From IMG/VR virus record IMGVR_UViG_3300043399_000848, positions 1 to 61,443 of that record: a stretch of DNA of 61,443 bases. One strand, written 5' to 3'. Shown piece after piece: positions 6,788-32,043 of the stretch; the first letter of the stretch is position 1, and each line of letters opens with the position of its first letter. This DNA is from a virus (Duplodnaviria > Caudoviricetes). The notes beneath the pieces are model-generated. The model ran no database searches. It saw only the letters and a program-made list of their open reading frames with translations, and was not told the DNA's origin. Both the position numbers and the translations under genes were made by a program.

Positions 6788-7846
6788 ATGGCCATTCAAG
6801 GTTACAGCACCGTCGCATCGCGGAACCTGATCCGCGCTGCCCAGGACATGCTGGCTCACGCTCAGCCGATCACCGTCCTCGGTGACTTCGGCACCCAGCG
6901 CCAGATGCCGCAGAACGCGACCGACACGCTGGTCTTCCGTCGCACGCTGCCGTTCGCGGCCAGCACGACCGGCACGACCATCGAGAACTCGCAGCGGTAC
7001 ATCGGCACCCCCGTCGTCGCCCCGAACAACTTCGTTCTGGGTGAGGGCGCGACGCCGAACGCGAACACGCTGGCGTTCCAGGACGTCACCGTCCAGCTGC
7101 AGCAGTACGGTCTGCTGTTCAAGTTCTCGTCCAAGGTCGAGCTGCTCTACGAGGATGACATCCCCGGCGAGATGGTCAAGATCACGGGCGAGACGATGGC
7201 CGAGGTGCTGGAGCTGGTCCGCTACGGCGTGCTGAAGGCCGGCTCGACGATCGTCTACGCGAACGGCTCCAGCCGGTCGGCGGTCAACACCCCGATCAGC
7301 CTGAACGCCCTCCGTCGCGCGGCCCGTACGCTGGAGAGCAACCGCGCCAAGCGCGTGACCTCCCGCCTGGCCCCGGGCGTGAACTTCGGCACCCGCGCGG
7401 TCCAGCCGGCGTTCATCGTGTTCGTTCACACGGACGCGGTGGCCGACATCCGCAACCTGCCGGGCTTCACCCGCGTCGAGGAGTACGGCTCGTTCAAGCC
7501 GATCCACGAGATGGAAATCGGCGCCTGCGAGGACTTCCGGTTCCTGAAGTCGCCCCTGCTGGCTTCGTTCCAGGCGGCCGGCTCGTCGACCCTCAACGGC
7601 TGCCTGTCGCTGGGCGCCTCGAACGTGGACGTGTACCCGTTCCTGGTGATCGGCGAGGACTGCTGGGGCCAGGTCGCGCTGAAGGGCATGAACGCGATCA
7701 CGCCGCGTGTCCTGAAGTCGGGCGACATCAACCACGCCAACCCGCTGGGCCAGTTCGGCTACGTGGGCGCGAGCACCTGGTTCGCCGCCGTCCGCCTCAA
7801 CGAGGCCTGGATGGCGCGCATCGAGTGCGGCGTGACGGCGCTCTGA
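6788..7846 (+). CDS. Major capsid protein, N4-gp56 family
   Basis: Motifs MPQNATDTLVFRR, LGEGATP, QQYG, EIGACEDFRF, DVYPFLVIG, NPLGQFGYVG; GAGG RBS. Confidence 0.88.
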   Translation: MAIQGYSTVASRNLIRAAQDMLAHAQPITVLGDFGTQRQMPQNATDTLVFRRTLPFAASTTGTTIENSQRYIGTPVVAPNNFVLGEGATPNANTLAFQDVTVQLQQYGLLFKFSSKVELLYEDDIPGEMVKITGETMAEVLELVRYGVLKAGSTIVYANGSSRSAVNTPISLNALRRAARTLESNRAKRVTSRLAPGVNFGTRAVQPAFIVFVHTDAVADIRNLPGFTRVEEYGSFKPIHEMEIGACEDFRFLKSPLLASFQAAGSSTLNGCLSLGASNVDVYPFLVIGEDCWGQVALKGMNAITPRVLKSGDINHANPLGQFGYVGASTWFAAVRLNEAWMARIECGVTAL

Positions 7847-9983: not shown

Positions 9984-12029
9984 ATGGTCCCCATCCGCAC
10001 GTCGCCGGTACGATATGACACGTTCCAGCTGGCTGGCGGCCTGGACCTGATCACGCCCACCCTGAGCCTGCCTCCCGGCGTGGCGAGGGACGCGCAGAAC
10101 TTCGAGGTCAGCACGACCGGGGGCTACAGCCGCATCTCCGGATACGAGCGCTTCGACGGCCGCAAGAGCCCGAGCACGGCCTCGTTCACGATCATCTCGC
10201 TGAGCTCCGTGGCCGGGGTGTCCGTGGGCAGCACGATCAAGAACCTGGCCAACACGATCAACGGCGTGGTCGCCGCGGTCGAGGGCAACAACGTCATCTA
10301 CACGAAAGCCGTCGGCACGTTCACGGTCGGCACGAGCGTGTACATCGGCGCGACCCTGATCGGCACGGTCACGGCTGTCGGCGTGGCCCCGGCGAACTCG
10401 CTTGCGATTGCGACCTACACCGCGGCCGCGTCGGACATCTACCGTGCGGACATCGGCGCCGTGCCCGGCAGCGGCCCGATCCGCGGCGTCGCGTACCTCG
10501 GCAACACGGTCTACGCGTGGCGGGACAATGTCGGCGCCACGGCGATGGCGATCTACAAGTCGAGCGCCACCGGGTGGACCAGCGTCGCTCTGGGCTGGGA
10601 GCTGCCTTTTACTGGCGGCACCGGCACGGCGATCGTCGCCGGGGACACCGTCGTTGGTGCTACCAGCGGGGCGACGGGCATGGTCGCGAGGGTCGTTCTG
10701 GAAAACGGCACGACCTGGAACGGAGGCTCTGGCAGGCTGATCCTGTCGAGCACGACCGGGACCTTTGCCGCGGCGGAGCACCTGAACGTCACCACGAAGC
10801 GGGCCGACTGCGCTGGCGCTGCGACCGCGATTACCTTGCAGCCTGGCGGACGCGTGGAGACGGTCATTGCCAACATGGGCGGCGCTGGTGCAACCAACAG
10901 GCTCTACGGCGCCGACGGGGTGAATAGGGGCTTCGAGTTCGACGGCACGGTCTATGTGCCGATCAAGACGGGGATGGCTGTCGACACGCCCCTGCACGTC
11001 TCCGTCCACAAGAACTACCTCTTCTTCAGCTTCGGGTCGTCGGTCCAGTACAGCGGCCTGGGCACGCCTTACGTGTGGTCGATCGTCCTCGGGGCCGGCG
11101 AGCTGGTGATGCCGGAGACGGTCACTTGTTTCCAGTCAATGCCCGGAGACGAAACAACCGGGTCTCTCGCGATTTACGGAAAGAACAACACGTTCATCCT
11201 ATACGGCACCGTCGCATCCCAGTGGAATCTGGTGCAGTACGACAGGGGCACGGGCGCGGCCGCGTACACGGTTCAAACGGTCAGCGACGCATACGGGCTG
11301 GACGACAGAGGCGTGATGTCTCTGCGCACCTCTCGTGCGTTCGGCAACTTCAACACCTCTGCTTTGACTCTGCAACTGCGCCCGTTCATCCAGAGCCACC
11401 GCGGCCAGGCGACGGCCAGCGGTGTCAGCCGGGAGAAGAGCCAGTACCGGGTGTTCTATGGTGACGGTTTCGGTTTGTACGTGACGATCGCCAACGGCCG
11501 CCTGCTGGGCTCGATGCCTGTCTACTTCCCGAACGCTGTCGAGTGCTGGTGCGAGGGCGAGTCGTCGGCCGGCTCGGAGGTGAGTTTCTTCGGGTCGGAC
11601 AATGGCTACGTCTACCAGATGGAGACCGGTCCCGATTTCGACGGTGCTGCGATCAGCGCGTACCTGCGGCTCAACTACGCGTCCGAGGGCAACGCTCGTG
11701 TGCTGAAGAGGTACCGCAGGGCATCCCTGGAGATCACGGGCAGCGGATACGCCGCTTTCGACTTCGGGTACTCGCTGGGTTACGGCTCGTCTGCGATCGA
11801 CCAGCCTCCGGAGACTTCGTATGCGGTCCCGTTCTCGGGGTCGTTTTGGGACTCTTTCGTGTGGGACGCGTTCATCTGGGACGGGCAGACGCTGTTCCCT
11901 GCTGAGACACAGGTCGACGGCACGGCCGAGAACATCGCCATGATCGTCAACACGAACAGCAGGCTCAACCAGCCGTTCACTATCAACAGCATCACGCTGC
12001 ACTATTCGCCTCGTCGAGGAATCCGGTAA
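9984..12029 (+). CDS. Tail nozzle/DNA-stabilisation protein (tail tubular B-like)
   Basis: 681-aa beta-propeller-like composition (GGLDL, NFE, GYSRISGYERFDG); follows the adaptor. Confidence 0.65.
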   Translation: MVPIRTSPVRYDTFQLAGGLDLITPTLSLPPGVARDAQNFEVSTTGGYSRISGYERFDGRKSPSTASFTIISLSSVAGVSVGSTIKNLANTINGVVAAVEGNNVIYTKAVGTFTVGTSVYIGATLIGTVTAVGVAPANSLAIATYTAAASDIYRADIGAVPGSGPIRGVAYLGNTVYAWRDNVGATAMAIYKSSATGWTSVALGWELPFTGGTGTAIVAGDTVVGATSGATGMVARVVLENGTTWNGGSGRLILSSTTGTFAAAEHLNVTTKRADCAGAATAITLQPGGRVETVIANMGGAGATNRLYGADGVNRGFEFDGTVYVPIKTGMAVDTPLHVSVHKNYLFFSFGSSVQYSGLGTPYVWSIVLGAGELVMPETVTCFQSMPGDETTGSLAIYGKNNTFILYGTVASQWNLVQYDRGTGAAAYTVQTVSDAYGLDDRGVMSLRTSRAFGNFNTSALTLQLRPFIQSHRGQATASGVSREKSQYRVFYGDGFGLYVTIANGRLLGSMPVYFPNAVECWCEGESSAGSEVSFFGSDNGYVYQMETGPDFDGAAISAYLRLNYASEGNARVLKRYRRASLEITGSGYAAFDFGYSLGYGSSAIDQPPETSYAVPFSGSFWDSFVWDAFIWDGQTLFPAETQVDGTAENIAMIVNTNSRLNQPFTINSITLHYSPRRGIR

Positions 12030-14038
12030 TGGCAAATCCGTACTACACCCCGACTGGTTACCCCGCGACTGGAGCCTCCGGGTCGTCCGCTTCGATGCGC
12101 TCGGAGCTGGCGCTGGTGGAGGGCGGTTTCGACCTGTTGCCCACACTCTCCGGCAACGGCGGGAAGCACGTGACGGTGAACTCCGGTGGTACGGCGTTGG
12201 CGGCTTCCGCGGTTGTTTCGGAGTCCGGGTCGACCCTGACCGTCGCGGGCAACCTGACCGTCACCGGCAACACGACCCTCGGAGACGCGAGCGGCGACAC
12301 GCTCACCGTGGCCCCGAGCGCCGTGACCTGGTCCGGCAACCCGACCCACAGCGGCAACCACACGTTCAGTGGCAACGTCACCCTCAGCGCCGGCACCGCG
12401 AACCGGTTGCTGTACCTCGACGGCAGCAAGCTGGTCACGACCAACGCTGGTCTGACCTACGACGGGACGTACCTGGGCGCGACCTTCCGGGACAACGGTT
12501 TCACCCTGAAGGACAACACGGACGCGACGAAGACGGCCGTGTTCGAGCTCAGCGGGATCACGACCGGGCAGACCCGCACGTATACGCTGCCGGACGTCAG
12601 CGACTCTCTGGCCACGCTTGGCAACGTCAGCCAGACGTTCGCGGGTACGGTAACCGTCTCCGGCACGTTCAACACGACGGGCACGTTCTCGACGATCGGC
12701 AACACGACTGCCGCGACGACGATCGGCCTGGGCCCCGGCGCGACGGTCTCAGGCAGCACCAAGACCATCAACATCGGCACCGCTGGCGTCAGCGGCAGCA
12801 CGACCAATATCAACATCGGCTCCGCGGTGGCGGGGTCGACGACGAGCATCATCTTCAACTCGGGCGGCGCCGAGGCTGGGCGGTTCAGTGGGGGAAATCT
12901 TGGCGTCGGTACCTCCTCCCCCGCTCAGCTCATCGACGCCGTTCGGACGCACAACGCAGGCACGAGCATCACCGTCCGCAATGCGAACACGGAGGCTTCA
13001 GCCAACGCGCAGTTCATCGCCAACGCGGACACGACTGTGGGCCGCTTCTCGGTATATTCCTCCGGTGCGGGGGCGCTTGCCAACCTCGTTGCCATCGAGC
13101 AGTCGACCAACAACCCGATTGTTTTCTACCTGAACAGCACGGAGCGGGTTCGAATCGACGGGTCGGGCAACGTCGGCGTCAACACCAACAACCCCGGCGG
13201 TTACGGCGGCCGGCTCAACGTCTACGCTGGCGACATCGTCGTGGCGGATGTGGGCACCGCGTCCGGGGCCTCTGCTCCGCGCCTGGGCAGCTCGTCGCAA
13301 GCGCTGGTCTTCAAGACCAACAGCGGCGGCGGTTCGGCTTCGGAGGTGGCGCGCATCGACGGCAGCGGCAACCTCGGGATTGGGACGAGCAGTCCGACCC
13401 GAAAGCTCCAAGTCTCGTCGGCGGGCAGCAACTACATCGCATCTGTCAACATTTCTGGCAGCACTTCCGCGCTGCTGTTGGGGGCGGAAAGCGGTGTAAC
13501 TGCCCTCTACTCGTGGACGACCGTCGGCGGGTCAACGGGCGTTCCGATGACCTTCTACGCAGGCGCGTCGGAAGGGATGCGGCTGGATACGAACAGCTAC
13601 CTCCTCGTCGGCTACACCACCTCCAACGGCGCGTACAGACTTCAGGTCAACAGCCAGATCTACGCGACCAACGCGACCATCGCCACTTCGGACGGCCGGT
13701 ACAAGGAGGACGTGCAGCCGGTAGAGAACGCGCTGGACACGGTTGCCAAGCTGCGCCCGGTCTCGTTCAAATGGAAGCAGCACGAGGTCCACAACTTCCC
13801 CGTCGGCCAGACCGACGTTGGCTTCATCGCTCAGGAAGTCCAGACCGCGCTTGATGGCTCGGCGTACGCCGATCAGATCGTCAAGGCCAATACCTGCACC
13901 CTGCCCAGCGGCGAGGAGGAGACCTTCCTGGGTCTGGCCGACTCCAAGCTGATCCCGGTGTTGGTCAAGGCGATTCAGGAACAGCAATCCCTCATCGAAG
14001 AACTGCGCGCCCGCGTGGCCGCTCTGGAGGCCCAATGA
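12029..14038 (+). CDS. Tail fibre with C-terminal peptidase S74 intramolecular chaperone
   Basis: RIDGSGNxGIGTxxP repeats; SDGRYKEDV, LRPVSFKWK, GFIAQEV, LIPVLVKAIQE plus coiled coil. Confidence 0.88.
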   Translation: MANPYYTPTGYPATGASGSSASMRSELALVEGGFDLLPTLSGNGGKHVTVNSGGTALAASAVVSESGSTLTVAGNLTVTGNTTLGDASGDTLTVAPSAVTWSGNPTHSGNHTFSGNVTLSAGTANRLLYLDGSKLVTTNAGLTYDGTYLGATFRDNGFTLKDNTDATKTAVFELSGITTGQTRTYTLPDVSDSLATLGNVSQTFAGTVTVSGTFNTTGTFSTIGNTTAATTIGLGPGATVSGSTKTINIGTAGVSGSTTNINIGSAVAGSTTSIIFNSGGAEAGRFSGGNLGVGTSSPAQLIDAVRTHNAGTSITVRNANTEASANAQFIANADTTVGRFSVYSSGAGALANLVAIEQSTNNPIVFYLNSTERVRIDGSGNVGVNTNNPGGYGGRLNVYAGDIVVADVGTASGASAPRLGSSSQALVFKTNSGGGSASEVARIDGSGNLGIGTSSPTRKLQVSSAGSNYIASVNISGSTSALLLGAESGVTALYSWTTVGGSTGVPMTFYAGASEGMRLDTNSYLLVGYTTSNGAYRLQVNSQIYATNATIATSDGRYKEDVQPVENALDTVAKLRPVSFKWKQHEVHNFPVGQTDVGFIAQEVQTALDGSAYADQIVKANTCTLPSGEEETFLGLADSKLIPVLVKAIQEQQSLIEELRARVAALEAQ

Positions 14039-21558: not shown

Positions 21559-24500
21559 ATGGCCAACTTCTTCGATCAGTTCGACAAGCCCGCGAAGGGT
21601 AACTTCTTCGATCAGTTTGACGGCCCTGAAAAGAAAGAAGGCGCCTTCGAACGGGCTGCGCGTATTGCCCGCGACGAGGACGGCGGCGTTCTGCCCGCGG
21701 TGGGATCGCTCATCGCGTCGGCCCTGCCCGAGGGCGGCGACAAGAGAACCGCTGGCGGCTTCTTCAAGGACACCGCGGTCGACCTCACCCGTGGCGTGGT
21801 CGGTCTGGGCCAGAGCGCGGTCGGCTTGGGCAACCTTGCCCGGGGGGTGATCGGGACGGTCGCATTCGGCGGGCTTGTCAGCCCGGGCGCTCTCGGCAAA
21901 GACCTGGAGGACCTTGGGTACAGCGGCGAGCAGACCCAGAAATTCCTTAGCGGTCTGTACACGCAGGACCGCCAGGAGGCGGACCGGAACGTCGAAGAGG
22001 CGAAGGGCTTCTTCAACACGCTCGGCGCCCTGGCCGTCAACCCCAGCTCGCTGGTGGGCCAGGTCGTTCAGTCTGTCCCCCAGACGGTCGCTGCTGGTGC
22101 TGCTGGCGGGGCCATCGTCCGCGCGCTGCTGCCTGGGGCGACCCAGGCCGCGGCTGCTGCCGGCCTCGTTGGCGACGACGCCGCCAACTTCATCTCCAAC
22201 TACGTGTCCAAGCGGGCTCTCGCCGCCGCTGCGGGGAGCGAAGGCGCGCTGACCGCCGGCTCGATCGCAGAGTCCGGCCGAGAAGCCGGTCAGGAGTTCT
22301 CGACGTATGCGCCAGCGGCCGTAGTTGGCGGCGTTGGGACGGGCCTCATCGGCGCCGCAAGTGGCGCCATCGGACGTCGTCTCGGGATCGGAGACATCGA
22401 GGCCGACATCGCCATGCGGGGCGCGGGCGTTGTCCCGACCGCGGGCGCAGGCAGCAGGCTCAAGCAGATCGGCAAGGACGCCCTCAAAGAGGGTGTCCTG
22501 GAGGAGGCCCCGCAATCGTTCCAGGAGCAATTGGCCACGCAGTACGCGCAGGGCAGGCCTTTCGACCTGGAAGAGGCCGCCAGCGCGGCCGCTCAGGGTC
22601 TCGCTTCTGGCGCCGTCATGGGCGGCGCTGGCGCCCTGGTTCGCCCACGTGCGCCAGCTCAAGTCCCGGCGGCCCCCGCGGACCAGGACGCAGCCCTCAC
22701 CGGCCAGGCCGGCCGCCTGACCGCGGCCACGGACGCGTACCTGCGCGGCGGCCTGCAGTCGTCAGACCCGACCGACGTGCTGTCGTCTGTCGTGTCCGCT
22801 CCGACGCCGAACGGGGACATCGGCGCTGCGATCACCGCAGCCGACCAGGCCGCCGGCCCGTCGATCGAGGAGATGATGCGGCAGAAGCGGCAGGCAGCCG
22901 CCGACCGCGTGGCCCAGGAGCTGGGCTACCCGACGATTGACGTGAATGCCCCCGCTGACGGCGGCTTGATCGCCGACATCCAGGCCCGCAGCCAGGCCGC
23001 GGTGAGCGCAGCCCAGGCCGAGCTCGGTCTTCCCCCGGCCACCGCCCCCGTGGTCCAGCAGGACTTCGCAGCACGTCGCGAGTCGGCGGCTCGTGCTGCT
23101 CAGGGCGAGCTTGGGATCGAACTGCCGACCGCCCCGCCGGTTGTTGGCGATCAGCTCACGCCGACCCAGAAGCAGGAGCTCGTGCGTCAGCAGATGCAGG
23201 CCCCTGCTCGGGCCCCGGACCTCGTCACGCAGGTCCAGCAGCAAGTCCAGACCCAGCCCGCGACCACGGGCGAGGACGTGGCCAGGGTCCGCACGGAGGT
23301 CGAGGAGCAGGCCCTCCAGCGGTGGCAGGCTGAGTACGACCAGCAGACCGCGGCTCAGGCCGAGAAGCAGGGCGTCGAAGCGGCAAAGGCTGCCACCGAG
23401 ACCCAGGCTCGCATGCGCGAGTCCCAAGACGAAACGGCTCTTGCGGAGCTTGACCGGATCGCTCAAGGGGAGCGCCAGCGTGCTGTCGACTCTCTCGTGC
23501 GCGCGTACGGCGAGAGGACGCAGTTCAGCTCCGCTGCAACCGTCCTGCAGACCAACCAGCAACTGACCCGGCTGGGCCAGCAACCGCTGACCAAGTCCGA
23601 GCGCGACCGGGTCGTGACGCTTCTGGACAGCGCACGCACGTTCACCTCTCCTGCCCAGGAACAGGTTCAGGTCATCCCCGACCGTGGCGCGGACAACGCC
23701 GCCCTGGAGCAGCAGATCCCGGAGAAGAAGGACAACCTTCCCCGCCCGGCAAACATCGGCGGCCAGCCGGCGTCCAGCTACTCGGTGTCTCAGCTCACCG
23801 ATCTGATCGCCAACACCAGCATCCCTGCGATCACGAGGCGAGGCGCTCAGGTCGAGCTGCTTGCCCGTCAACAGGAGCAGGCGGCTCCGGCCCCCGCAGC
23901 GCCCGCCCTCCCCGCTGCCGTTACGCCTGCCGGACCCACGATCGTTCCGAGCGCCAAGCGCACCCCCGAGCAGGGCCTCCAGGTGGCCGCTGCCAAGAGG
24001 AGCGAGAAGACGGGCCAGCAGGTCACGTTCACCGTCGCTGACGTGGCCACGCTGCCGACGATGGCCAAGGCCGGGGGCGGGCTGTCGAAGCAGGCCCACA
24101 CGATCATCAACAACGTCTCCCGGGTGTTCGGGAAGAAGCTGGTCGTGTTCGACTCGGACGATGCCGGGGCGGCAGATGGCTTCGTGATTGACGACGATCC
24201 GGACACGATCTACCTGAATCGCAAGAGCGAGGTGCCGCACCTGGTCGTGTTCGGCCACGAGCTGCTGCACTCCCTTCGCCGCGACAACAAGGACGCGTAC
24301 GAGTCGATCGTCAAGTCGATCAAGATGGCCGAGGGTGTGGACATCTCCGAGACCCCGGGCATCCGGGGCGACATCGAGGAGTTCACCGCCGACCTTCTGG
24401 GCAACAGGTTCCGCGAGACGGAATTCTGGGTCGGTACGTTCCGCGACATCATCGCCAGCAAGGGTCAGGCGGAGGGCAAGAAGGTCGTCACCCGTCTGGC

Positions 24501-27500
24501 GGCCACGGCCACCCGGGCGATCAACGGCCTGATGAAGGCCCTCGGCCGCGCGCCTGGTTTCAACACCGACAAGATGGTCGCCAACCTGGGCGACGTCAAG
24601 ACGGCCCTCCGCGGCGCGCTGTCCAACTACGCCAACCAACGGTACGACGCCGCGGTGGCGCTGGAGCGTGAGCGGCTGTCCGGTCCTGCGCGAGGCGAAA
24701 CCGTGCCTGTGGCCGAGTCTGGTGGCGAGGTCGTCACCAGCGCCCGCCGCGGCGAGAAGCCTGGCCAGCTCGACGGGCTTGTCGGGTACCACTTCAGCAA
24801 CCAGGCCCGGCAGACGCTGAGCACGGGCTTCTACGGCACGGGCCTGCGCGGCAGCGACAGGGACGAGATCCAGTCCTACCCCGACAAGCGCGTCGGCAAG
24901 CGTCTGTCGTTCTACTTCGACAAGGGCACGGGCGTGCGGCCCGAGTCCGGTGTCGGAGGGGTTGCGCACCGCGTTGCGCTCGACAACATCTACGACTCGG
25001 ACTCCGATCCGCTCAAGCTGAAGAGGGGCGCCAACAAGAGGGCGTTCGAGGCGGCCGTCCTGGACGCCGGATTCGACGGGTACATGACCCGCCTGGAGGG
25101 CACCCAGCCCGGCCAGGTGGTCGTCCTCGGAGACCGCACGTACAAGCCCGAGGTGCTCGGCCCCCGCTCGCGTATCAACGACAGCGAGCCTGCCGTCGCG
25201 CAAGCAGCGCAAGAGCCGCAGTGGAAGAACGTCGCCACCGGCCCGACCCGCGAGGGCCTGCAGGACCGCATGGCCCGGATGGAGTCGTCCGGCAGCTGGT
25301 CCGGGTACGACATGCAGATCGTCGAGGCCGGGCGCGGGTTCTACGCGCTGCAGACGCGGCCGAAAGTGGTACCTTCTGAAAAGAGAGGTGAAAGTGGACG
25401 ACCCGAACAAGCCGGAGACCGAGCAGGACGGTATTCGATCGGAAGCCTTGCGCCGCTTGAAGGCGCGCCGAATGTTGCAGGGGCGTCAGGTCCCGACCCC
25501 CGGCTCGTCGCCGTGGCCGAAGAATACGCCCGAGAAACGGGGATCCCGCTCCGGCGCCAAGGCTCCTACGTCCAAGTAGACGAGGACCGCGCACGCCGCA
25601 TCGCCGCGGCGTACGACGCGATGCCCCACGCGCCGCTGGACCCTGCGGTCCGCGAGGCATACGACAACCTGGCCCGGCAGACGCTGGCCCAGTACCGGGC
25701 GTTGGAGCGCGCCGGCTACCAGTTCTATCTGGTTGACGAGACCAACGACCCGTACGGCGGCAACCCGTGGAACGCGATGCGCGATCTGCGGGCGAACCAG
25801 CGCATGGGTGTGTTCGCCACCGAGGCCGGGTTTGGAACCAGTGACTTCGACCCGGAGGGCAACCCCCTGCTGGCCGACACGGGACTTGAGTGGAGCTACG
25901 GCTCGCCCGACGGCCCGAAGAAGCGGGTGCTGTTCAACGACCTGTTCCGTGCTGTACACGACGCCTTCGGCCACGGTCTTGAGGGCGCTGGCTTCCGCGC
26001 TCAGGGCGAGGAGAACGCCTGGCAGGCCCACGTTCGCCTGTTCACCGGCAGCGCCGTGGGGGCGATCACGAGCGAGACGCGCGGTCAGAACTCCTGGCTG
26101 AACTACGGTCCCTACGGCGAGCAGAACCGCAACGCCAGGGTCGAGGACACCGTCTTTGCCGATCAGAAGACCGGGCTCATGCCCGAGTGGACCTGGACCG
26201 AAGGCCGGGCGGAAGACGAGATCCGGGAAAGCGCCAAGCGCGGCCCGCAGAAGATCGAGGTGGGCAAGACGATCCTGCAGTCGGAGCCCCTGACCCCCGA
26301 GCAGTGGGCTTCCGTCCGGGAAATTGGGCTGAAGCGAATGACGCCTGAGGAGCGCGCCGAGGTCGAGGCCGCGGAGCGCCGCGTGTCCGTCAACACCGAG
26401 ACTGCGGACAAGAAATCCGTCGAGTACGTCAGCATTGCCAAGGCCGCGCTGGACAGCATGCCTGTCCCGCAGCTGTCCACGGTTCCCATCTTGTCCGGTC
26501 GCGCGCCACTGAGGGTCATTCCGACGGGCAAGGTCGGAAAAGACGGGAAACGAAAGACCCGTGTCTTCGACGTGGCCCGTGCGCTTCGGAACCGCTTCCT
26601 CAAGCGGGCCGGCGACATCAACACGGAGCAGGGTCAAGAGGCCATCGCTCGGGCAATGGCGCACGAGGCTCTGTACGCCCTGTCCCAGGACGGCCACGCC
26701 GTGGGCTGGTACGACCGGAAGGTTGTCGAGGCGATCGCCAACGCCGCGATCGCGCATCCTCGGATCCTGACGGACCGTGAGTCAAACTTCATGTTCCGCG
26801 TGGTTCTGGCCGTGACGTCAAACGGCCAGGCCGTTCGGGACAACTTCAGCTTTGGTAACTCGATCCTGAAGACCTGGTTCGAGACGAATCGTCTGCCGGA
26901 GCAATTCGACGGGGGCGGCGCTCGTAGCCCCGCCATGAAGCTTGCATTCGCCAAGGTGAACCGGCTTGTTCAGGAGCACGGCTGGGAGAAGACCGAGCAG
27001 ATCCTGAGGCAACTCCGCCAGGTCGGGCAGATTGAAAAGGAGTTCGATCTCAAGATCAGCGGCGAGAACAAGAAGACTCTGGTGCCCGTTGCCGTCGGCA
27101 TGGGCGGCCCGAAGATCGGTAACTTCTTCGCCAACCTGTCCGGGTTCTTCGACAACCCGACGATGGACCTGTGGTTCATGCGGACGGTGGGGCGGATGGC
27201 CGGCAGCAACCTCGCCACGAAGCCGAGCCTGGTCAAGTTCCTGGACGACCTGAGCAAGCTGCTGCCGGAAACCGGCGAGGTCAACGGGATCGACGTCAAG
27301 GACATTCGGGAGGAAATCGCAGCGTACAAGGCACTGGAGCCTGACGAGCAGACGGACCCCGAGCTGACGATTCAGTATTTGCAGAAGACCGAGCAGTACG
27401 CCCGGAAGCAGTACCAGATCTTCTCCACGGGCACGGGCAAGGTTTACGAGAACGGCAAGACCCGGACCTTCGACGACAAATCCCCGCTCAACCTGAACGC

Positions 27501-30500
27501 GCGTTCCCTGGTCAACAACCTTTCGACCCTGGTCGAGGCTCCCGGCAGCGGCAACGAGCGCAACAACCTGCGCAAGATCGTCAACCGCGCCCTGGCCTTG
27601 CTGCGCCAGCGGGGGATACAATTGAACGCCGCCGATCTTCAGGCGGTCCTCTGGTACTACGAGAAGAACCTCTATGGAAAAGTCGGCAACATCTCGGAAA
27701 GCGCAAAGCCGTGGGACTACGCCTCAGCAGCGCGATGGGGAGTTGGCCGGGAGCTTGGACTCGTTGATGTCAAGCCTTCAGGTCGAGCAAGACCGGTTCG
27801 AGAGGGAGAATCAGGACAGCCGGACCTGGAACGACCCGGAAGCGTTCGCGAAGGCGGTGCGGTCAATGCTCCGCAGTCAGAGCAGCCCCTCAGCCCAGGA
27901 CCATTCACCCGCGCCCGAAGCCTGACCCAGCGCCAGGCGGGGGACGCCGGCCCGGCTGACGTCGTGGCCAGTGAGCCCCCGGCCGAACCGCGGGTCGTGC
28001 TGAGCGAGAAGCGCACCCCTCTCGGGTTCTACTCCGCCCTGGCTGCCGGCGTTGGTCAGATCAAGACCAATGCTGCCCCTGCTCAGGGGTGGAAGGACGC
28101 CATCAAGGGCTTGGTGAACAAGGGCCAGGTCAAGCAGGACGAGGTCGAGTGGTCGGGCGTCAACGATTGGCTCGACCTCCAGCAGGGCAAGGTCACGCGC
28201 GAGGAGGTGGCCGAGTACCTGAAGCAGGGTGGTGTGCAGGTTGAGGAGACGGTGTTAGGGGGCGCCGGTGGCTGGTCTGTAGTTGATCAGGCTACCGGCG
28301 GCGACCAATTTGTTGAGGCTTTTGCCACAGAGCAAGAGGCCGAGGCGCGAGCGCAAGAGCTTGGCGCCCGCGAATACGCGGCAATTCCAAGCGGGAACAC
28401 GCCGACGGCCGAAACCAAATACGCCAAATACACCCTCCCCGGCGGCACCAACTACCGCGAGGTGCTGCTGACGTTGCCGTTCAGGGGTCCAAATTTTGGG
28501 GATTGGGCCGCCGCACGCGGCATTCAACTGCAGGCCCTGTCTGCGAGCGAGGCAGATAGGCTTGGGGATGAGTTTGACGCGCAGGCGGAAAGGGGCATGT
28601 ACCGCTCCAAGCACTGGGACCCACCCAACGTCCTCGCCCACATCCGCGTCAACGACCGCACCGATGCCGATGGCAAGCGCGTGCTGTTCGTCGAGGAGCT
28701 TCAGTCTGACTGGGGGCAGGAGGGGAAGAAGAAGGGCTTCATTGGCGGCAAGGTGAAGGGCTACCAAGTCCAGTTCAACGGTCGCCCGGTCATGACCTAC
28801 GAGACGCGCCAGGAAGCCGACGCCCACGTCGAGCGCGCGAAGGGGTTCGACAAAGAAGCCCCCGTCTCCGTGGTCGAAGTGGAAACAACCCGGCACTCCG
28901 TCAACGAAAGGGCGGAAGGCAAAGTGCTCAACGCCCCCTTCGTCACCAAAACCGAAGGCTGGCTCAACCTCGCCCTCAAGCGCGTGATGATCATGGCCGC
29001 AGAGGGCGGCTACGACCGCGTGGCTTTCACCACGGGTGCGCAAAACGCGGAGCGATTCTCGCTCGACAAAACGCTGCGCGAGATTGCTTACGAGCCAACC
29101 GAAGATGGCAAGTACGAAATCACGGCGACCGATCTTGAAGGTACAGAGGTCATCAGCGAAGACGAAGTCCGCCTTGACCGGATTGAAGAGCTGGTCGGCA
29201 AGGAGATCGCGGAGAAGATTGCTCGCGACGAGGGCGAGCGCGATGACGACGGGTATCGCGAATGGCGCTACCTGCGAGGCGACAACCTCAAGGTCGAAGC
29301 CAAGGGCATGCGCGCCTTCTACGACACCATCGTGCCCACGGCGCTGAAGAAGCTGCTGCCGAAGGTGGGTGGGGGGCAGATGGCGGCAGTGAACATCATC
29401 GATGCCGCTCGTGAGCCCGAGATGGTGGGCGTCGATGAGGACGGCGACGCGATCTACGACGACGGCATTGGGGACTCGCTGCAGCAACCCGGCTTTGACG
29501 TCACCCCCGCCATGCGCGAGAAGGTGTCCGAGGGCCTGCCGCTGTTCAGCGAGAAGCGCAACATCCCCGACCTGAACGCGGCCCAGGAGCAGGCGCTGCG
29601 CAACGTGGGTGGTGTGGTCGTCGAGCAGACCGTCGGCGAGCGCGCGGCTGAGTTCAAGAACGCTTTCGCTCGCAACTGGATCGGGGGCATCTTCGACCAG
29701 TTCAACGAGCTGCGCAGCCTGGGCCCCAAGGCTTACATGCTGGCACGCATGTCCAAGGGTTCGGAAGGCACGCTCGAAGCGACCATGCTCTACGGCAAGC
29801 CGTTCCTCACCGCCGACGGTGTCGCAGACGTCAAGCTCGGTGGCGAAGGCTTCGCCAAGGTGCTGGGCAAGCTCGAAGGCGAGCACGACCGGTTCCTGTG
29901 GTGGGTCGCGGCACAGCGCGCAGACCAGCTCAAGGCGCAGGGCCTGGAGAACCTGTTCACCGACAAGGACATCAGCGCACTCAAGTCGCTGAACCAGGGC
30001 AATACCGCCCGCGGGACGGCTCGCGGCCGCCTGTACGCAGAGGCCCTGCGGGACATGAACGACTTCAACGACGCGATCCTCAAGATCGCCGAGCAGTCGG
30101 GGCTGGTCGACCCTGAGGCCAGGGCGCTGTTCAAGAACAACCCCTACGTCCCGTTCTACCGGGTCATGGAGGGCGATGGTGTTTCGGGCCCGACGTTCAG
30201 CTCCGGACTGACCAACCAATACGCGTGGAAGAAGCTCAAGGGGGGCTCGCAGAAGCTGAACAACGACCTGCTGGCCAACGTCCTGATGAACTGGTCCCAT
30301 CTTCTCTCGGCCTCCGCCAAGAACCGCGCCCTGACCGAGTCGCTGAAGGCGGGCGTTGCCGCGGGCGTGGCGCAGAAGGTCCCCTCCGGGACCAAGGAGT
30401 CCGTGCGCGTGCGGGTCAACGGCAAGGAAGAGCACTACCTGGTCAGCGACCCCGGCGTGATGTCGGCGATCTCTGCGATCGAGTACCGCACCCCTGGATT

Positions 30501-32043
30501 CTTCCGGCCGTTCAGCACGATGAAGCGGTGGCTGTCTGTGGGCGTGACCGCGAACCCGGCCTACAAGGTGAAGAACCTGATCCGGGACTCGGTCGCAGCG
30601 CCAGCGGTGTCGGATCTCAGCGGGAACGTGATCGGCAACGTCGCACAAGGTATCCGCCAGGGGGCCGAGGACTCGCAGACGTTCGCCTCGATGCTGGCCG
30701 GCGGCGGCGTTATCCGATTCGGCTCGATGCTCGACGGCGGCAACGCAGACCGCACTCGGACTTTGGTTCGAAAGGAAGGCGGGGTCCTGCTGGACGAGGC
30801 CGGTTGGAAGAAGGTGTCCAACTGGATGGGTGACCTCTGGGATGCGTACAACACCGTCGGCGACAAGTTCGAGAACGCCAACCGTGTGGCCCTGTACGAG
30901 CAGCTGAAGGCCAAGGGCTACAGCGACCTGGAAGCCAATTTCCTCGCGCGAGACCTGATGGACTTTTCCATGTCCGGTCGCTGGCCGCTGATCCGCTTCC
31001 TGGTCGAGACGGTGCCCTTCCTCAACGCGCGACTGCAGGGCCTGTTCAAGCTCGGCCGCGGCGCCAAGGAGAACCCGCGCAAGTTCGGCGCGGTGGTCGG
31101 GGCCGTGGCCCTGGCCAGCATCGCCCTGCTGGCCGCGTACGAGGACGACGAGGACTGGAAGCGTCGGGAAGACTGGGACCGAGACACGAACTGGTGGTTC
31201 AAGATCGGCGACATGTCCTTCCGCATCCCGAAGCCTTTCGAGGTTGGCGCGATCGGGACCATCGCCGAGCGCGGATGGGAGATGGCGTTCAACAAGGAGA
31301 TGGACATGAAGAGGTTCGGGCAGTCCCTGTCCCGGATGATCTTCTCCACCTTCGCGATGGACCCAACCCCGCAGATCGTGAAGCCAATCCTCGACGTGTA
31401 CATGAACAAGGGCGCGTTCACCAACCGCCCGATCGAGTCGATGACGATGGCCCGCCAGAGGCCCGAGGATAGGTACGACGAGAACACCAGCTACGCCGCC
31501 CGGTTCCTCGGACAGATGGGCATTCCCAGCCCTCTCGGCCTGGCCAGGGCGGAGTACACGAAACTGTCCCCGGTGCAGATCGACTACCTCATCCGGGGCT
31601 ACTTCGCCTGGCTGGGCACGGCCGCGACCACGGTCCTGGACTTCGGCATTCGCCCGATGATGGACGCTGGGGACCGTCCGGATCGGACCCTCAAGGACAC
31701 GTTCTTCGTTGGCAACTTTGTCGAGACGCTGCCCGCTGGCGGAAGCCGGTACGTCACGCAGTTGTACGAGCAGTCGAGGGAAATCGAGCAGGCTTACGCC
31801 AGCTATCGGGACGCTCTCAAGGAGAACGACCGAGCGCGGGCGCGCGAGCTGAGCGAGGACTACGCCGAAGAGTTCCGGGCCCGGCCGAGGGTCAACAAGG
31901 CCACGAAGGAGATCGCCGAGATCCGGCGGCAGATCAACATGATCGAGTCGTCGAAGTCCATCACCGGCGAGACGAAGCGGGTCCGGATCGACAACCTGCG
32001 GCAGAAGATGGCGCGCATCGCGGAGCGGGCCACCGCACCGTAA
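21559..32043 (+). CDS. Giant (3494 aa) polyvalent ejection protein: HExxH zincin, ART-like, HDxxGH, HhH-like, EELQSDW and LPD38-type domains
   Basis: VFGHELLH; YHFS...FYF...GFDGY; FRAVHDAFGH...GEENAW; GPKIGNFFANL...TMDLW; VLFVEELQSDW; C-terminal FRIPKPFEVG...SPVQIDYLIRGY. Confidence 0.8.
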   Translation: MANFFDQFDKPAKGNFFDQFDGPEKKEGAFERAARIARDEDGGVLPAVGSLIASALPEGGDKRTAGGFFKDTAVDLTRGVVGLGQSAVGLGNLARGVIGTVAFGGLVSPGALGKDLEDLGYSGEQTQKFLSGLYTQDRQEADRNVEEAKGFFNTLGALAVNPSSLVGQVVQSVPQTVAAGAAGGAIVRALLPGATQAAAAAGLVGDDAANFISNYVSKRALAAAAGSEGALTAGSIAESGREAGQEFSTYAPAAVVGGVGTGLIGAASGAIGRRLGIGDIEADIAMRGAGVVPTAGAGSRLKQIGKDALKEGVLEEAPQSFQEQLATQYAQGRPFDLEEAASAAAQGLASGAVMGGAGALVRPRAPAQVPAAPADQDAALTGQAGRLTAATDAYLRGGLQSSDPTDVLSSVVSAPTPNGDIGAAITAADQAAGPSIEEMMRQKRQAAADRVAQELGYPTIDVNAPADGGLIADIQARSQAAVSAAQAELGLPPATAPVVQQDFAARRESAARAAQGELGIELPTAPPVVGDQLTPTQKQELVRQQMQAPARAPDLVTQVQQQVQTQPATTGEDVARVRTEVEEQALQRWQAEYDQQTAAQAEKQGVEAAKAATETQARMRESQDETALAELDRIAQGERQRAVDSLVRAYGERTQFSSAATVLQTNQQLTRLGQQPLTKSERDRVVTLLDSARTFTSPAQEQVQVIPDRGADNAALEQQIPEKKDNLPRPANIGGQPASSYSVSQLTDLIANTSIPAITRRGAQVELLARQQEQAAPAPAAPALPAAVTPAGPTIVPSAKRTPEQGLQVAAAKRSEKTGQQVTFTVADVATLPTMAKAGGGLSKQAHTIINNVSRVFGKKLVVFDSDDAGAADGFVIDDDPDTIYLNRKSEVPHLVVFGHELLHSLRRDNKDAYESIVKSIKMAEGVDISETPGIRGDIEEFTADLLGNRFRETEFWVGTFRDIIASKGQAEGKKVVTRLAATATRAINGLMKALGRAPGFNTDKMVANLGDVKTALRGALSNYANQRYDAAVALERERLSGPARGETVPVAESGGEVVTSARRGEKPGQLDGLVGYHFSNQARQTLSTGFYGTGLRGSDRDEIQSYPDKRVGKRLSFYFDKGTGVRPESGVGGVAHRVALDNIYDSDSDPLKLKRGANKRAFEAAVLDAGFDGYMTRLEGTQPGQVVVLGDRTYKPEVLGPRSRINDSEPAVAQAAQEPQWKNVATGPTREGLQDRMARMESSGSWSGYDMQIVEAGRGFYALQTRPKVVPSEKRGESGRPEQAGDRAGRYSIGSLAPLEGAPNVAGASGPDPRLVAVAEEYARETGIPLRRQGSYVQVDEDRARRIAAAYDAMPHAPLDPAVREAYDNLARQTLAQYRALERAGYQFYLVDETNDPYGGNPWNAMRDLRANQRMGVFATEAGFGTSDFDPEGNPLLADTGLEWSYGSPDGPKKRVLFNDLFRAVHDAFGHGLEGAGFRAQGEENAWQAHVRLFTGSAVGAITSETRGQNSWLNYGPYGEQNRNARVEDTVFADQKTGLMPEWTWTEGRAEDEIRESAKRGPQKIEVGKTILQSEPLTPEQWASVREIGLKRMTPEERAEVEAAERRVSVNTETADKKSVEYVSIAKAALDSMPVPQLSTVPILSGRAPLRVIPTGKVGKDGKRKTRVFDVARALRNRFLKRAGDINTEQGQEAIARAMAHEALYALSQDGHAVGWYDRKVVEAIANAAIAHPRILTDRESNFMFRVVLAVTSNGQAVRDNFSFGNSILKTWFETNRLPEQFDGGGARSPAMKLAFAKVNRLVQEHGWEKTEQILRQLRQVGQIEKEFDLKISGENKKTLVPVAVGMGGPKIGNFFANLSGFFDNPTMDLWFMRTVGRMAGSNLATKPSLVKFLDDLSKLLPETGEVNGIDVKDIREEIAAYKALEPDEQTDPELTIQYLQKTEQYARKQYQIFSTGTGKVYENGKTRTFDDKSPLNLNARSLVNNLSTLVEAPGSGNERNNLRKIVNRALALLRQRGIQLNAADLQAVLWYYEKNLYGKVGNISESAKPWDYASAARWGVGRELGLVDVKPSGRARPVREGESGQPDLERPGSVREGGAVNAPQSEQPLSPGPFTRARSLTQRQAGDAGPADVVASEPPAEPRVVLSEKRTPLGFYSALAAGVGQIKTNAAPAQGWKDAIKGLVNKGQVKQDEVEWSGVNDWLDLQQGKVTREEVAEYLKQGGVQVEETVLGGAGGWSVVDQATGGDQFVEAFATEQEAEARAQELGAREYAAIPSGNTPTAETKYAKYTLPGGTNYREVLLTLPFRGPNFGDWAAARGIQLQALSASEADRLGDEFDAQAERGMYRSKHWDPPNVLAHIRVNDRTDADGKRVLFVEELQSDWGQEGKKKGFIGGKVKGYQVQFNGRPVMTYETRQEADAHVERAKGFDKEAPVSVVEVETTRHSVNERAEGKVLNAPFVTKTEGWLNLALKRVMIMAAEGGYDRVAFTTGAQNAERFSLDKTLREIAYEPTEDGKYEITATDLEGTEVISEDEVRLDRIEELVGKEIAEKIARDEGERDDDGYREWRYLRGDNLKVEAKGMRAFYDTIVPTALKKLLPKVGGGQMAAVNIIDAAREPEMVGVDEDGDAIYDDGIGDSLQQPGFDVTPAMREKVSEGLPLFSEKRNIPDLNAAQEQALRNVGGVVVEQTVGERAAEFKNAFARNWIGGIFDQFNELRSLGPKAYMLARMSKGSEGTLEATMLYGKPFLTADGVADVKLGGEGFAKVLGKLEGEHDRFLWWVAAQRADQLKAQGLENLFTDKDISALKSLNQGNTARGTARGRLYAEALRDMNDFNDAILKIAEQSGLVDPEARALFKNNPYVPFYRVMEGDGVSGPTFSSGLTNQYAWKKLKGGSQKLNNDLLANVLMNWSHLLSASAKNRALTESLKAGVAAGVAQKVPSGTKESVRVRVNGKEEHYLVSDPGVMSAISAIEYRTPGFFRPFSTMKRWLSVGVTANPAYKVKNLIRDSVAAPAVSDLSGNVIGNVAQGIRQGAEDSQTFASMLAGGGVIRFGSMLDGGNADRTRTLVRKEGGVLLDEAGWKKVSNWMGDLWDAYNTVGDKFENANRVALYEQLKAKGYSDLEANFLARDLMDFSMSGRWPLIRFLVETVPFLNARLQGLFKLGRGAKENPRKFGAVVGAVALASIALLAAYEDDEDWKRREDWDRDTNWWFKIGDMSFRIPKPFEVGAIGTIAERGWEMAFNKEMDMKRFGQSLSRMIFSTFAMDPTPQIVKPILDVYMNKGAFTNRPIESMTMARQRPEDRYDENTSYAARFLGQMGIPSPLGLARAEYTKLSPVQIDYLIRGYFAWLGTAATTVLDFGIRPMMDAGDRPDRTLKDTFFVGNFVETLPAGGSRYVTQLYEQSREIEQAYASYRDALKENDRARARELSEDYAEEFRARPRVNKATKEIAEIRRQINMIESSKSITGETKRVRIDNLRQKMARIAERATAP
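25394..25579 (+). CDS. Candidate nested +1-frame small protein inside the giant gene (61 aa)
   Basis: AGAGGTG SD before GTG; the +1 frame has genome-like GC3 where the main frame does not. Confidence 0.45.
   Translation: MDDPNKPETEQDGIRSEALRRLKARRMLQGRQVPTPGSSPWPKNTPEKRGSRSGAKAPTSK
27674..27925 (+). CDS. Candidate nested +1-frame small protein inside the giant gene (83 aa)
   Basis: ATG after GAGAAG; codon bias switches to the +1 frame over 27725-27874. Confidence 0.5.
   Translation: MEKSATSRKAQSRGTTPQQRDGELAGSLDSLMSSLQVEQDRFERENQDSRTWNDPEAFAKAVRSMLRSQSSPSAQDHSPAPEA

Follow-up and report, generated by a model that had tools for sequence, protein, structure and literature searches.

Can a short reading frame that lies wholly inside a longer gene be taken for a gene in its own right? 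The question is raised by a stretch of 61,443 nucleotides (nt) from a virus of the Caudoviricetes (IMG/VR record IMGVR_UViG_3300043399_000848, positions 1 to 61,443), here called the window. Its giant open reading frame (ORF) encodes a phage polyvalent virion protein, and a much shorter ORF is contained in it, on the same strand and in the +1 frame, just where a module ending in the motif QAVLWY gives way to a spacer (Table 1). The shorter ORF, of 83 codons and offset by +1 from the giant frame, had been described in an initial annotation and exists as described there. We consider it probable that this is a real small protein-coding gene whose product is a two-helix partner of the module encoded upstream, its expression and its role being predictions.

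Codon phase sets the stretch apart. The hand counts of the initial annotation, 29 codons ending in A or T among 50 in the main frame (from 27724) and 7 among 50 in the +1 frame (from 27725), were reproduced exactly, and the main-frame count has a binomial p of 1.5e-11 against the gene-wide frequency of A or T at third positions (0.159). G+C contents at the first, second and third codon positions (GC1/2/3) are 0.67/0.46/0.84 for the giant gene, and GC3 averages 0.84 in 50-codon windows, with a standard deviation of 0.09. A frame-wise GC3 plot agreed that the region is unlike the rest of the gene: the main-frame minimum over all 3494 codons falls within the nested ORF, and the +1 phase there reads 0.62/0.42/0.86, which is the giant gene's normal coding pattern. 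Three other causes of the dip were considered and rejected. As to an antisense gene, the region has a single minus-strand ORF of 60 codons or more (27717..28016), and it puts its third positions on the low-GC third positions of the main frame. For a recent transfer from a low-GC donor, the total GC of the stretch is unchanged. For a rare-codon pause, the same spacer of low-GC relatives gains A, not rare G- or C-ending codons.

The +1 peptide is conserved within the window's own clade. DNA relatives came from two records, L003 and a single contig collected as L001, L002 and L074. Both L001 and L003 have a main-frame GC3 dip (to 0.32-0.46) and, at the equivalent site, a +1 ORF of 72-79 codons with a common end point. 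The null came from shuffling synonymous codons inside the region of each sequence, a procedure that preserves both the protein and local codon usage, and alignments were scored globally with BLOSUM. Against L001 the window scored 49 in the +1 frame and 28 in the main frame; the +1 null was 4.3 (standard deviation 11.6), none of 1000 shuffles reached the observed score, and the +2 frame gave p 0.52. Against L003 the scores were 35 and 24, with p 0.003 for the +1 frame and 0.078 for the +2 control. The peptide is therefore kept beyond what the main frame demands in both relatives (z of about 3.4-3.9, the +2 frame not being significant), as the check proposed in the initial annotation had called for. 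In a 1.6-kb sliding scan, z(+1) was 3.2 in both comparisons from 27760 onward, with z(+2) of 0.6 and 1.0; the 20 upstream control windows were without signal (z(+1) from -1.7 to 2.1), and the scan window starting at 27685 showed a rise in both frames in the L001 comparison alone.

With a profile built from the three core peptides, 1.84 billion representative proteins were also searched. Two short matches, P0123 (69 aa, E 5.8e-11) and P0124 (80 aa, E 1.1e-10), lie on contigs of 590-600 nt; they represent the same nested ORF, picked up by a gene finder on these fragments, with the start at the GTG of the relatives. A third, P0125 (2201 aa, 10 stretches, E 2e-6), looks repetitive. Stops in the +1 frame of close relatives, which would have told against the initial annotation, were not seen, and the frame is intact in all five known members. 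Judged from three DNA sequences, the nested frame appears to be under purifying selection beyond that of the outer frame.

This +1-specific conservation is confined to the part from about 27760 onward, which we call the core. Upstream of it, L001 and L003 have a +1 TAG four codons before a GTG, then AGGAG, six bases and the GTG, all of these being built from the rare main-frame codons CTA, GGA and AGT. In the window, an alternative to the ATG at 27674 is the TTG/ATG at 27764/27767, with a GGGAG lying 10-13 nt before it, and these +1 codons are created by the rare main-frame codons GTT and GAT within a conserved L-V-D-V.

The same arrangement recurs in sister clades. About 110 distinct loci were collected by the motif QAVLW(Y/F) from viral, metagenome and genome collections, the scan of genome contigs giving four distant loci only. 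Loci that shared the same 90-aa key around the motif were counted once, those with short flanks were omitted from the GC3 and composition counts, one (L059) was dropped when the regular expression took the wrong segment, and three (L018, L048 and L052) had no match to the expression. GC3 drops by at least 0.2 within 300 nt after the motif in 28 of 30 distinct loci with a GC of at least 0.58. In the other two, L098 and L099, the module is not followed by a spacer, GC3 does not dip and the +1 frames look like junk; they serve as natural negative controls.

The +1 translations across loci fall into several families. In clade A (10 loci) the +1 ORF has 72 codons, an aligned start (ATG in 9 of 10, GTG in the other), a conserved stop and mostly a purine-rich sequence upstream that resembles a Shine-Dalgarno (SD) sequence; identity is 0.43 in the +1, 0.34 in the main and 0.16 in the +2 frame (upstream domain: 0.58, 0.14 and 0.12). 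The shuffle test was repeated in four clades, skipping pairs with more than 60% identity in the control block; pairs share ancestry and so are not independent trials. Mean z(+1) and z(+2) were 7.1 and 2.7 in clade A (43 pairs), 3.0 and 1.5 in clade B (62 pairs), 4.5 and 1.1 in the low-GC clade (26 pairs), and 5.3 and 1.0 in clade D (6 pairs), and control blocks 150 codons upstream gave mean z(+1) of 0.04-0.34.

At seven loci the domain ORF ends and is followed by a free-standing gene of 56-84 codons with its own SD sequence and ATG; all three phases occur. The nested peptides of clade D, in which three members are fully nested (L148, L135 and L073) and one partly overlapping (L152), are homologous to such free-standing genes (hhalign probability 94.9, E 4.3e-8; reversed control P 0.51). 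The peptide of the window is not placed in that small-gene family, which has the pattern G(K/R)(L/M)P...LL.AV and unites clades D and F: its profile gave P 0.09 against D and 0.065 against F, with reversed controls at 0.24-0.30. Since it has no significant profile match to any of the other families, what we claim from these comparisons for the window and the sister clades is a shared arrangement, not a shared family. Among the nested peptides and free-standing small genes, Pfam and PHROG searches returned nothing below E 0.019.

Two attempts to draw the families together were abandoned. A superfamily of all nested peptides through a core 'DP(I/E)xxA', seen by eye, had no support in profile comparison, and when stop-to-stop +1 stretches were clustered all against all, similarity arising as a by-product over the conserved motif confounded the outcome, with 32 matches to +2 decoys. 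As a separate observation, in one group of loci (L113, L116, L117, L119, L121, L126, L130-L143, L149 and L151), whose members are close relatives of one another, the domain ORF stops about 100 codons after the motif, and a conserved +1 ORF of about 75 codons overlaps nearly the whole of this C-terminal stretch.

A further line of evidence is a predicted complex. AlphaFold2 gives the 52-residue core helices at residues 3-14 and 19-38 and a disordered tail, at a predicted local distance difference test score (pLDDT) of 68, and models the upstream module (aa 1563-2077) as an all-alpha fold with pLDDT 91 and a predicted template modelling score of 0.88. Modelled together, module and core peptide reached an interaction prediction score from aligned errors (ipSAE) of 0.72 (runs 0.71, 0.72 and 0.72), and the best of three controls 0.01 (range 0.00-0.01). 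In calibration, 58 of 80 solved complexes attained this ipSAE mark, as did 2 of 110 mismatched pairs, but these counts apply only roughly here since the alignments were our own. The prediction of the peptide with the upstream domain that the initial annotation had asked for was thus passed. The partner has pLDDT 71 in the complex, and the runs share at least 73% of contacts. The modelled interface brings together the module's invariant G288-P289-K290, neighbours of T306/D308/W310, and the invariant Q8, N15 and F27 of the peptide; the three module residues are invariant in a 28-sequence alignment. The model supports, but does not show, binding of the peptide to the G-P-K loop, and the QAVLWY module is its predicted target.

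What the module does is less plain than the initial annotation had it. Its proposal of an overprinted gene acting on the upstream domain is favoured by the +1 conservation, the sister-clade signal, the free-standing homologue in one clade and the complex model, but the label given to that domain, a helix-hairpin-helix (HhH)-like effector, finds no support. No Pfam family is assigned to the module in a search of it and 28 members, and neither a PDB fold comparison (E<=0.001) nor a PDB sequence search found a relative. A weak lead is DUF7178, found in 2 of the 28 members (best E 4.6e-4); 14-33% of Atlas look-alike clusters carry it too. By Pfam and PDB fold the module has no recognisable toxic or enzymatic domain, such as a toxin-immunity or toxin-antitoxin pair would include. 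The placement of the ORF, said to follow the last conserved motif and to cover linker, was right for its 3' half, which lies over the variable linker; the 5' half lies over a conserved tail, for in all 13 aligned homologues the main frame stays conserved for about 45 codons past WYYEK, as far as about 27810.

In the mechanism that we propose, translation of the small gene would begin at a start codon of its own, with no frameshift involved. The two-helix product would dock on the conserved G-P-K face of the module whose coding sequence immediately precedes, acting as a partner specific to that module, and may be either an inhibitor silencing the module in the producing cell or a chaperone for its folding or packaging. 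Module and partner would travel as one cassette when polyvalent genes are shuffled, and the floppy main-frame spacer would largely be out-of-frame read-through of the partner gene.

Several results weigh against a gene. The clade is known from only three DNA sequences, and L001 and L003 are related, so that the two significant comparisons are not independent. Crude identity on optimised alignments is 0.40 in the +1, 0.54 in the main and 0.33 in the +2 frame, there is no rise in the proportion of identical residues encoded by the same codon, and the first 30 codons (27674-27760) are without +1-specific constraint against L003. Clade B likewise fails on crude identity (+1 0.27, main 0.30, +2 0.33). 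The window's peptide has no Pfam or PHROG family, and an Atlas look-up gave 0.86-0.87, under the level that counts. No free-standing relative of it was found among the 1.84 billion representatives, where the short matches are the two nested-ORF fragments only, and its profile matches none of the families of clades A, B, D, F or the low-GC clade significantly (best, W against W3, P 4.4e-4 and probability 34%). A blastn search against annotated phages returned a single, unrelated match of 103 nt. The window lacks the relatives' AGGAG-GTG, its ATG at 27674 being seven codons upstream and preceded by a weak GAG, and with such weak ribosome-binding sites the start is uncertain. The structure model cannot show binding, nor does it distinguish a partner bound in trans from a tail folded back in cis. 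Finally, the frame would be open anyway: 17 of 75 stop-free +1 stretches in the giant gene reach at least 80 codons, and synonymous shuffles keep the +1 frame open, with 99 codons observed, a shuffle mean of 116 and 67% of shuffles reaching the observed value (p 0.67 for the window, 0.38 and 0.53 for the two relatives). Stops in the +1 frame are rare in spacers because few codons there have T in the second position. Length was therefore rejected as evidence for a gene.

Much of this would follow if there were no gene, the +1 ORF being a by-product of the amino-acid make-up of the spacer and the A-ending codons arising from other causes, such as constancy of local base composition or, where first and second codon positions are GC-rich as here, the avoidance of G runs or RNA structure. 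The openness under shuffling, the weak ribosome-binding site and the want of a family or a free-standing relative all suit this explanation, as does the behaviour of spacers in general. Their third positions gain A and lose G in all GC classes (A3 from 0.06 to 0.24 and G3 from 0.41 to 0.23 at high GC; A3 from 0.31 to 0.43 at low GC), overall base composition stays nearly constant, and G falls most before a codon that begins with G. Codon use shifts for nearly every amino acid (in 24 loci, GGA from 0.05 to 0.41, CGA from 0.03 to 0.30, GAA from 0.22 to 0.61). Composition nevertheless leaves unexplained that the peptide of the +1 frame, and not that of the +2 frame, is conserved above shuffles which keep composition, that clade A has aligned ATG or GTG starts, a conserved stop and a higher identity in the +1 than in the main frame, and that some nested peptides match free-standing genes. 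Disorder alone is also insufficient, other low-complexity parts of the giant gene (aa 330-800) holding a main-frame GC3 of at least 0.65, and the complex model passes where its controls stay at 0.00-0.01. We regard a mere by-product as unlikely.

A second possibility is that a free-standing small gene was swallowed by read-through fusion in another frame and is now a decaying relic, no longer expressed, of which the codon imprint remains. Such fusions have happened, given that free-standing, partly overlapping and fully nested forms of one small-gene family exist, and the loss of the relatives' AGGAG-GTG from the window would fit with decay. Against this, the imprint (GC3 0.3-0.46) and the peptide persist in three lineages in which identical residues share a codon only about 40-60% of the time, and none of the five known members has a broken frame. 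We hold decay to be very improbable.

Some ribosomes might instead shift by +1 near the end of the module, read a helical tail that folds back on it and stop at 27925, yielding a truncated product beside the full-length one. A start that varies within the clade, ATG 27674 in the window and a GTG seven codons later in the relatives, is what a tail of this kind would permit, as is a conserved part beginning only near 27760, and the complex model is equally compatible with binding in cis. The relatives, however, have a +1 TAG ahead of a canonical AGGAG-N6-GTG, sister clades have an SD sequence and an ATG, often directly after +1 stops, and free-standing homologues occur in all three phases relative to the upstream gene. 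No stable RNA structure was found in the nested-ORF region, whose fold is less stable than those of shuffled sequences (z +1.35), and Rfam, frameshift elements included, gave no match; no systematic search for shift-prone sites was made. A frameshifted tail would on this evidence be a considerable surprise. The initial annotation's own alternative, the relic of a compensated frameshift, is rejected for the 5' half, where the main frame is strongly conserved, and disfavoured for the 3' half, where the +1 peptide is kept between lineages with largely diverged synonymous sites.

A nested partner gene being the preferred reading, its surroundings deserve description. Genes for a major head protein (6788-7843) and a tail fibre (12029-14035) lie upstream of the giant gene, all within one structural module. 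Pfam finds LPD38 at the C-terminus of its product (aa 3197-3383, E 1.5e-35), which places the ORF among the phage 'polyvalent proteins'; it is multi-module and belongs to a phage virion module. The product has 883 homologues at E<=0.001, many of them with ART-PolyVal or LPD families of Pfam.

Table 1. Features of the giant gene and of the nested reading frames in the window
Feature	Position	Strand or frame	Basis or remark
Giant main-frame ORF, 3494 aa, phage polyvalent virion protein	21559..32043	+	ORF list, translation, Pfam
All-alpha module ending in the QAVLWY motif, with conserved tail; main frame aa 1563-2084	26245..27810	+	Homologue alignment, AlphaFold2
Nested +1-frame ORF, 83 codons, ATG to TGA	27674..27925	+	ORF list, translation
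Gene-wide minimum of main-frame GC3, 0.42	27721..27870	+	50-codon windows
Conserved core, 52 codons from internal ATG (TTG at 27764); predicted two-helix peptide, possible alternative start	27767..27925	+	+1-specific conservation confined to about 27760 onward
Variable G/A/P/R/S-rich main-frame linker	27811..28002	+	Homologue alignment diverges after about aa 2085; reaches S-E-K-R module-border motif at 28003
Second nested +1 ORF, GTG, 63 codons	25388..25579	+	The gene's other GC3 dip; overlaps spacer and start of next module
S-(A/E)-(K/R)-R copies	23950, 24739, 25375, 26230, 28003, 29548	main frame	aa 798, 1061, 1273, 1558, 2149, 2664

Some further features of the giant protein may be recorded. 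The motif S-(A/E)-(K/R)-R, usually after V-V-x or similar, has six copies at apparent module borders, and may be a processing site, to judge by the sequence; around two of the copies (23926 and 27979) 76% of 41 nt are shared. An H-E-x-x-H motif (FGHELLHS, 24300-24330, about aa 915-925) suggests a zincin-like peptidase module, a family that Pfam did not report for the giant protein at E<=0.01. At the start of the gene there is a near-perfect 21-nt direct repeat (21565-21621, 36-nt spacing), which encodes a repeated N-F-F-D-Q-F-D.

The giant gene contains a second candidate of the same kind, coinciding with a GC3 dip to 0.46 at 25339-25525, and the module that it overlaps begins with the motif L-A-P-L-E-G-A-P. 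Compared with seven loci, it gave z(+1) of 3.4-5.4 and z(+2) of 2.6-4.6, the adjacent control giving -0.7 to 2.4, which indicates that synonymous sites are constrained there. Its +1 stop, made by a rare GTA valine codon, lies at the same main-frame Y-x-x-V-D position in the window and in five of the seven loci (L007, L026, L075, L100 and L107); in the other two (L108 and L111) the counterpart ends about ten codons earlier. A third +1 ORF (28283-28471, plus strand, TTG, 62 codons), over a milder GC3 dip, is R/P/T-rich, has GC1/2/3 of 0.49/0.68/0.68, which is not coding-like, and probably does not code.

From these cases we tentatively put forward a broader scheme, which may well be wrong: polyvalent proteins could be built of cassettes, each a module with its private partner gene, shuffled as units and with the partners out of frame in the spacers, the window holding at least two of them (25388-25579 and 27674-27925). 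The floppy linkers would then mostly be partner genes read in another frame, and every module that is injected would bring along an inhibitor or chaperone of its own.

Polyvalent proteins of phages and conjugative elements were described by Iyer et al. 2017 (PMC5512222), and the giant gene, multi-module and with LPD38, is a member of that class. The main text of that paper does not describe nested genes, the word 'nested' there referring to a hairpin, and nowhere in the full-text literature searched, this main text included and supplements not covered, did we meet a gene described as nested in the spacer of a polyvalent protein.

Gene finders discard ORFs that lie within longer ones, so on this reading, if it is right, standard annotation would overlook an entire class of small phage proteins. 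Giant injected multi-enzyme proteins would follow a testable rule for their control or folding, each module having its partner in its own spacer, and inter-domain linkers could originate as read-through of a small gene in another frame. The partner peptides would also be ready-made ligands for modules of unassigned function, such as the widespread all-alpha QAVLWY module, which resembles no solved structure.

Among known systems, the toxin-immunity pairs of polymorphic toxin systems and the effector chaperones form cassettes of an effector and its cognate small partner. The locus is like these in having a module, then a small gene with a predicted binding product, and in that the pair seems to move as a unit; it is unlike them in that the partner's coding sequence lies within the effector polyprotein gene, in another frame, and not downstream of it, and in the lack of a recognised toxic or enzymatic activity in the module.

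Embedded +1 genes are already known in phages, the spanin genes Rz and Rz1 of lambda being the example: the small gene lies wholly in the +1 frame of a larger phage gene on the same strand, the two products are thought to act together, and Rz1 is a secreted lipoprotein. The nested gene proposed here shares that geometry, but sits in an inter-module spacer of a 3494-aa virion protein and not in a lysis gene. Its 83-aa translation has no cysteine and hence no lipobox, unlike an o-spanin of the Rz1 type, and no sequence relation to Rz1 was found with Pfam and PHROG or among the representative proteins.

Overprinted genes are likewise familiar from small phages and viruses, as with B in A and E in D of phiX174. 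Here too DNA would code in two frames, one of the partner frames being disordered or of low complexity. The order of events may differ from overprinting of the phiX174 type: other phages carry homologous small genes as separate genes, so that the small gene may have come first and the spacer of the giant gene may be the overprint.

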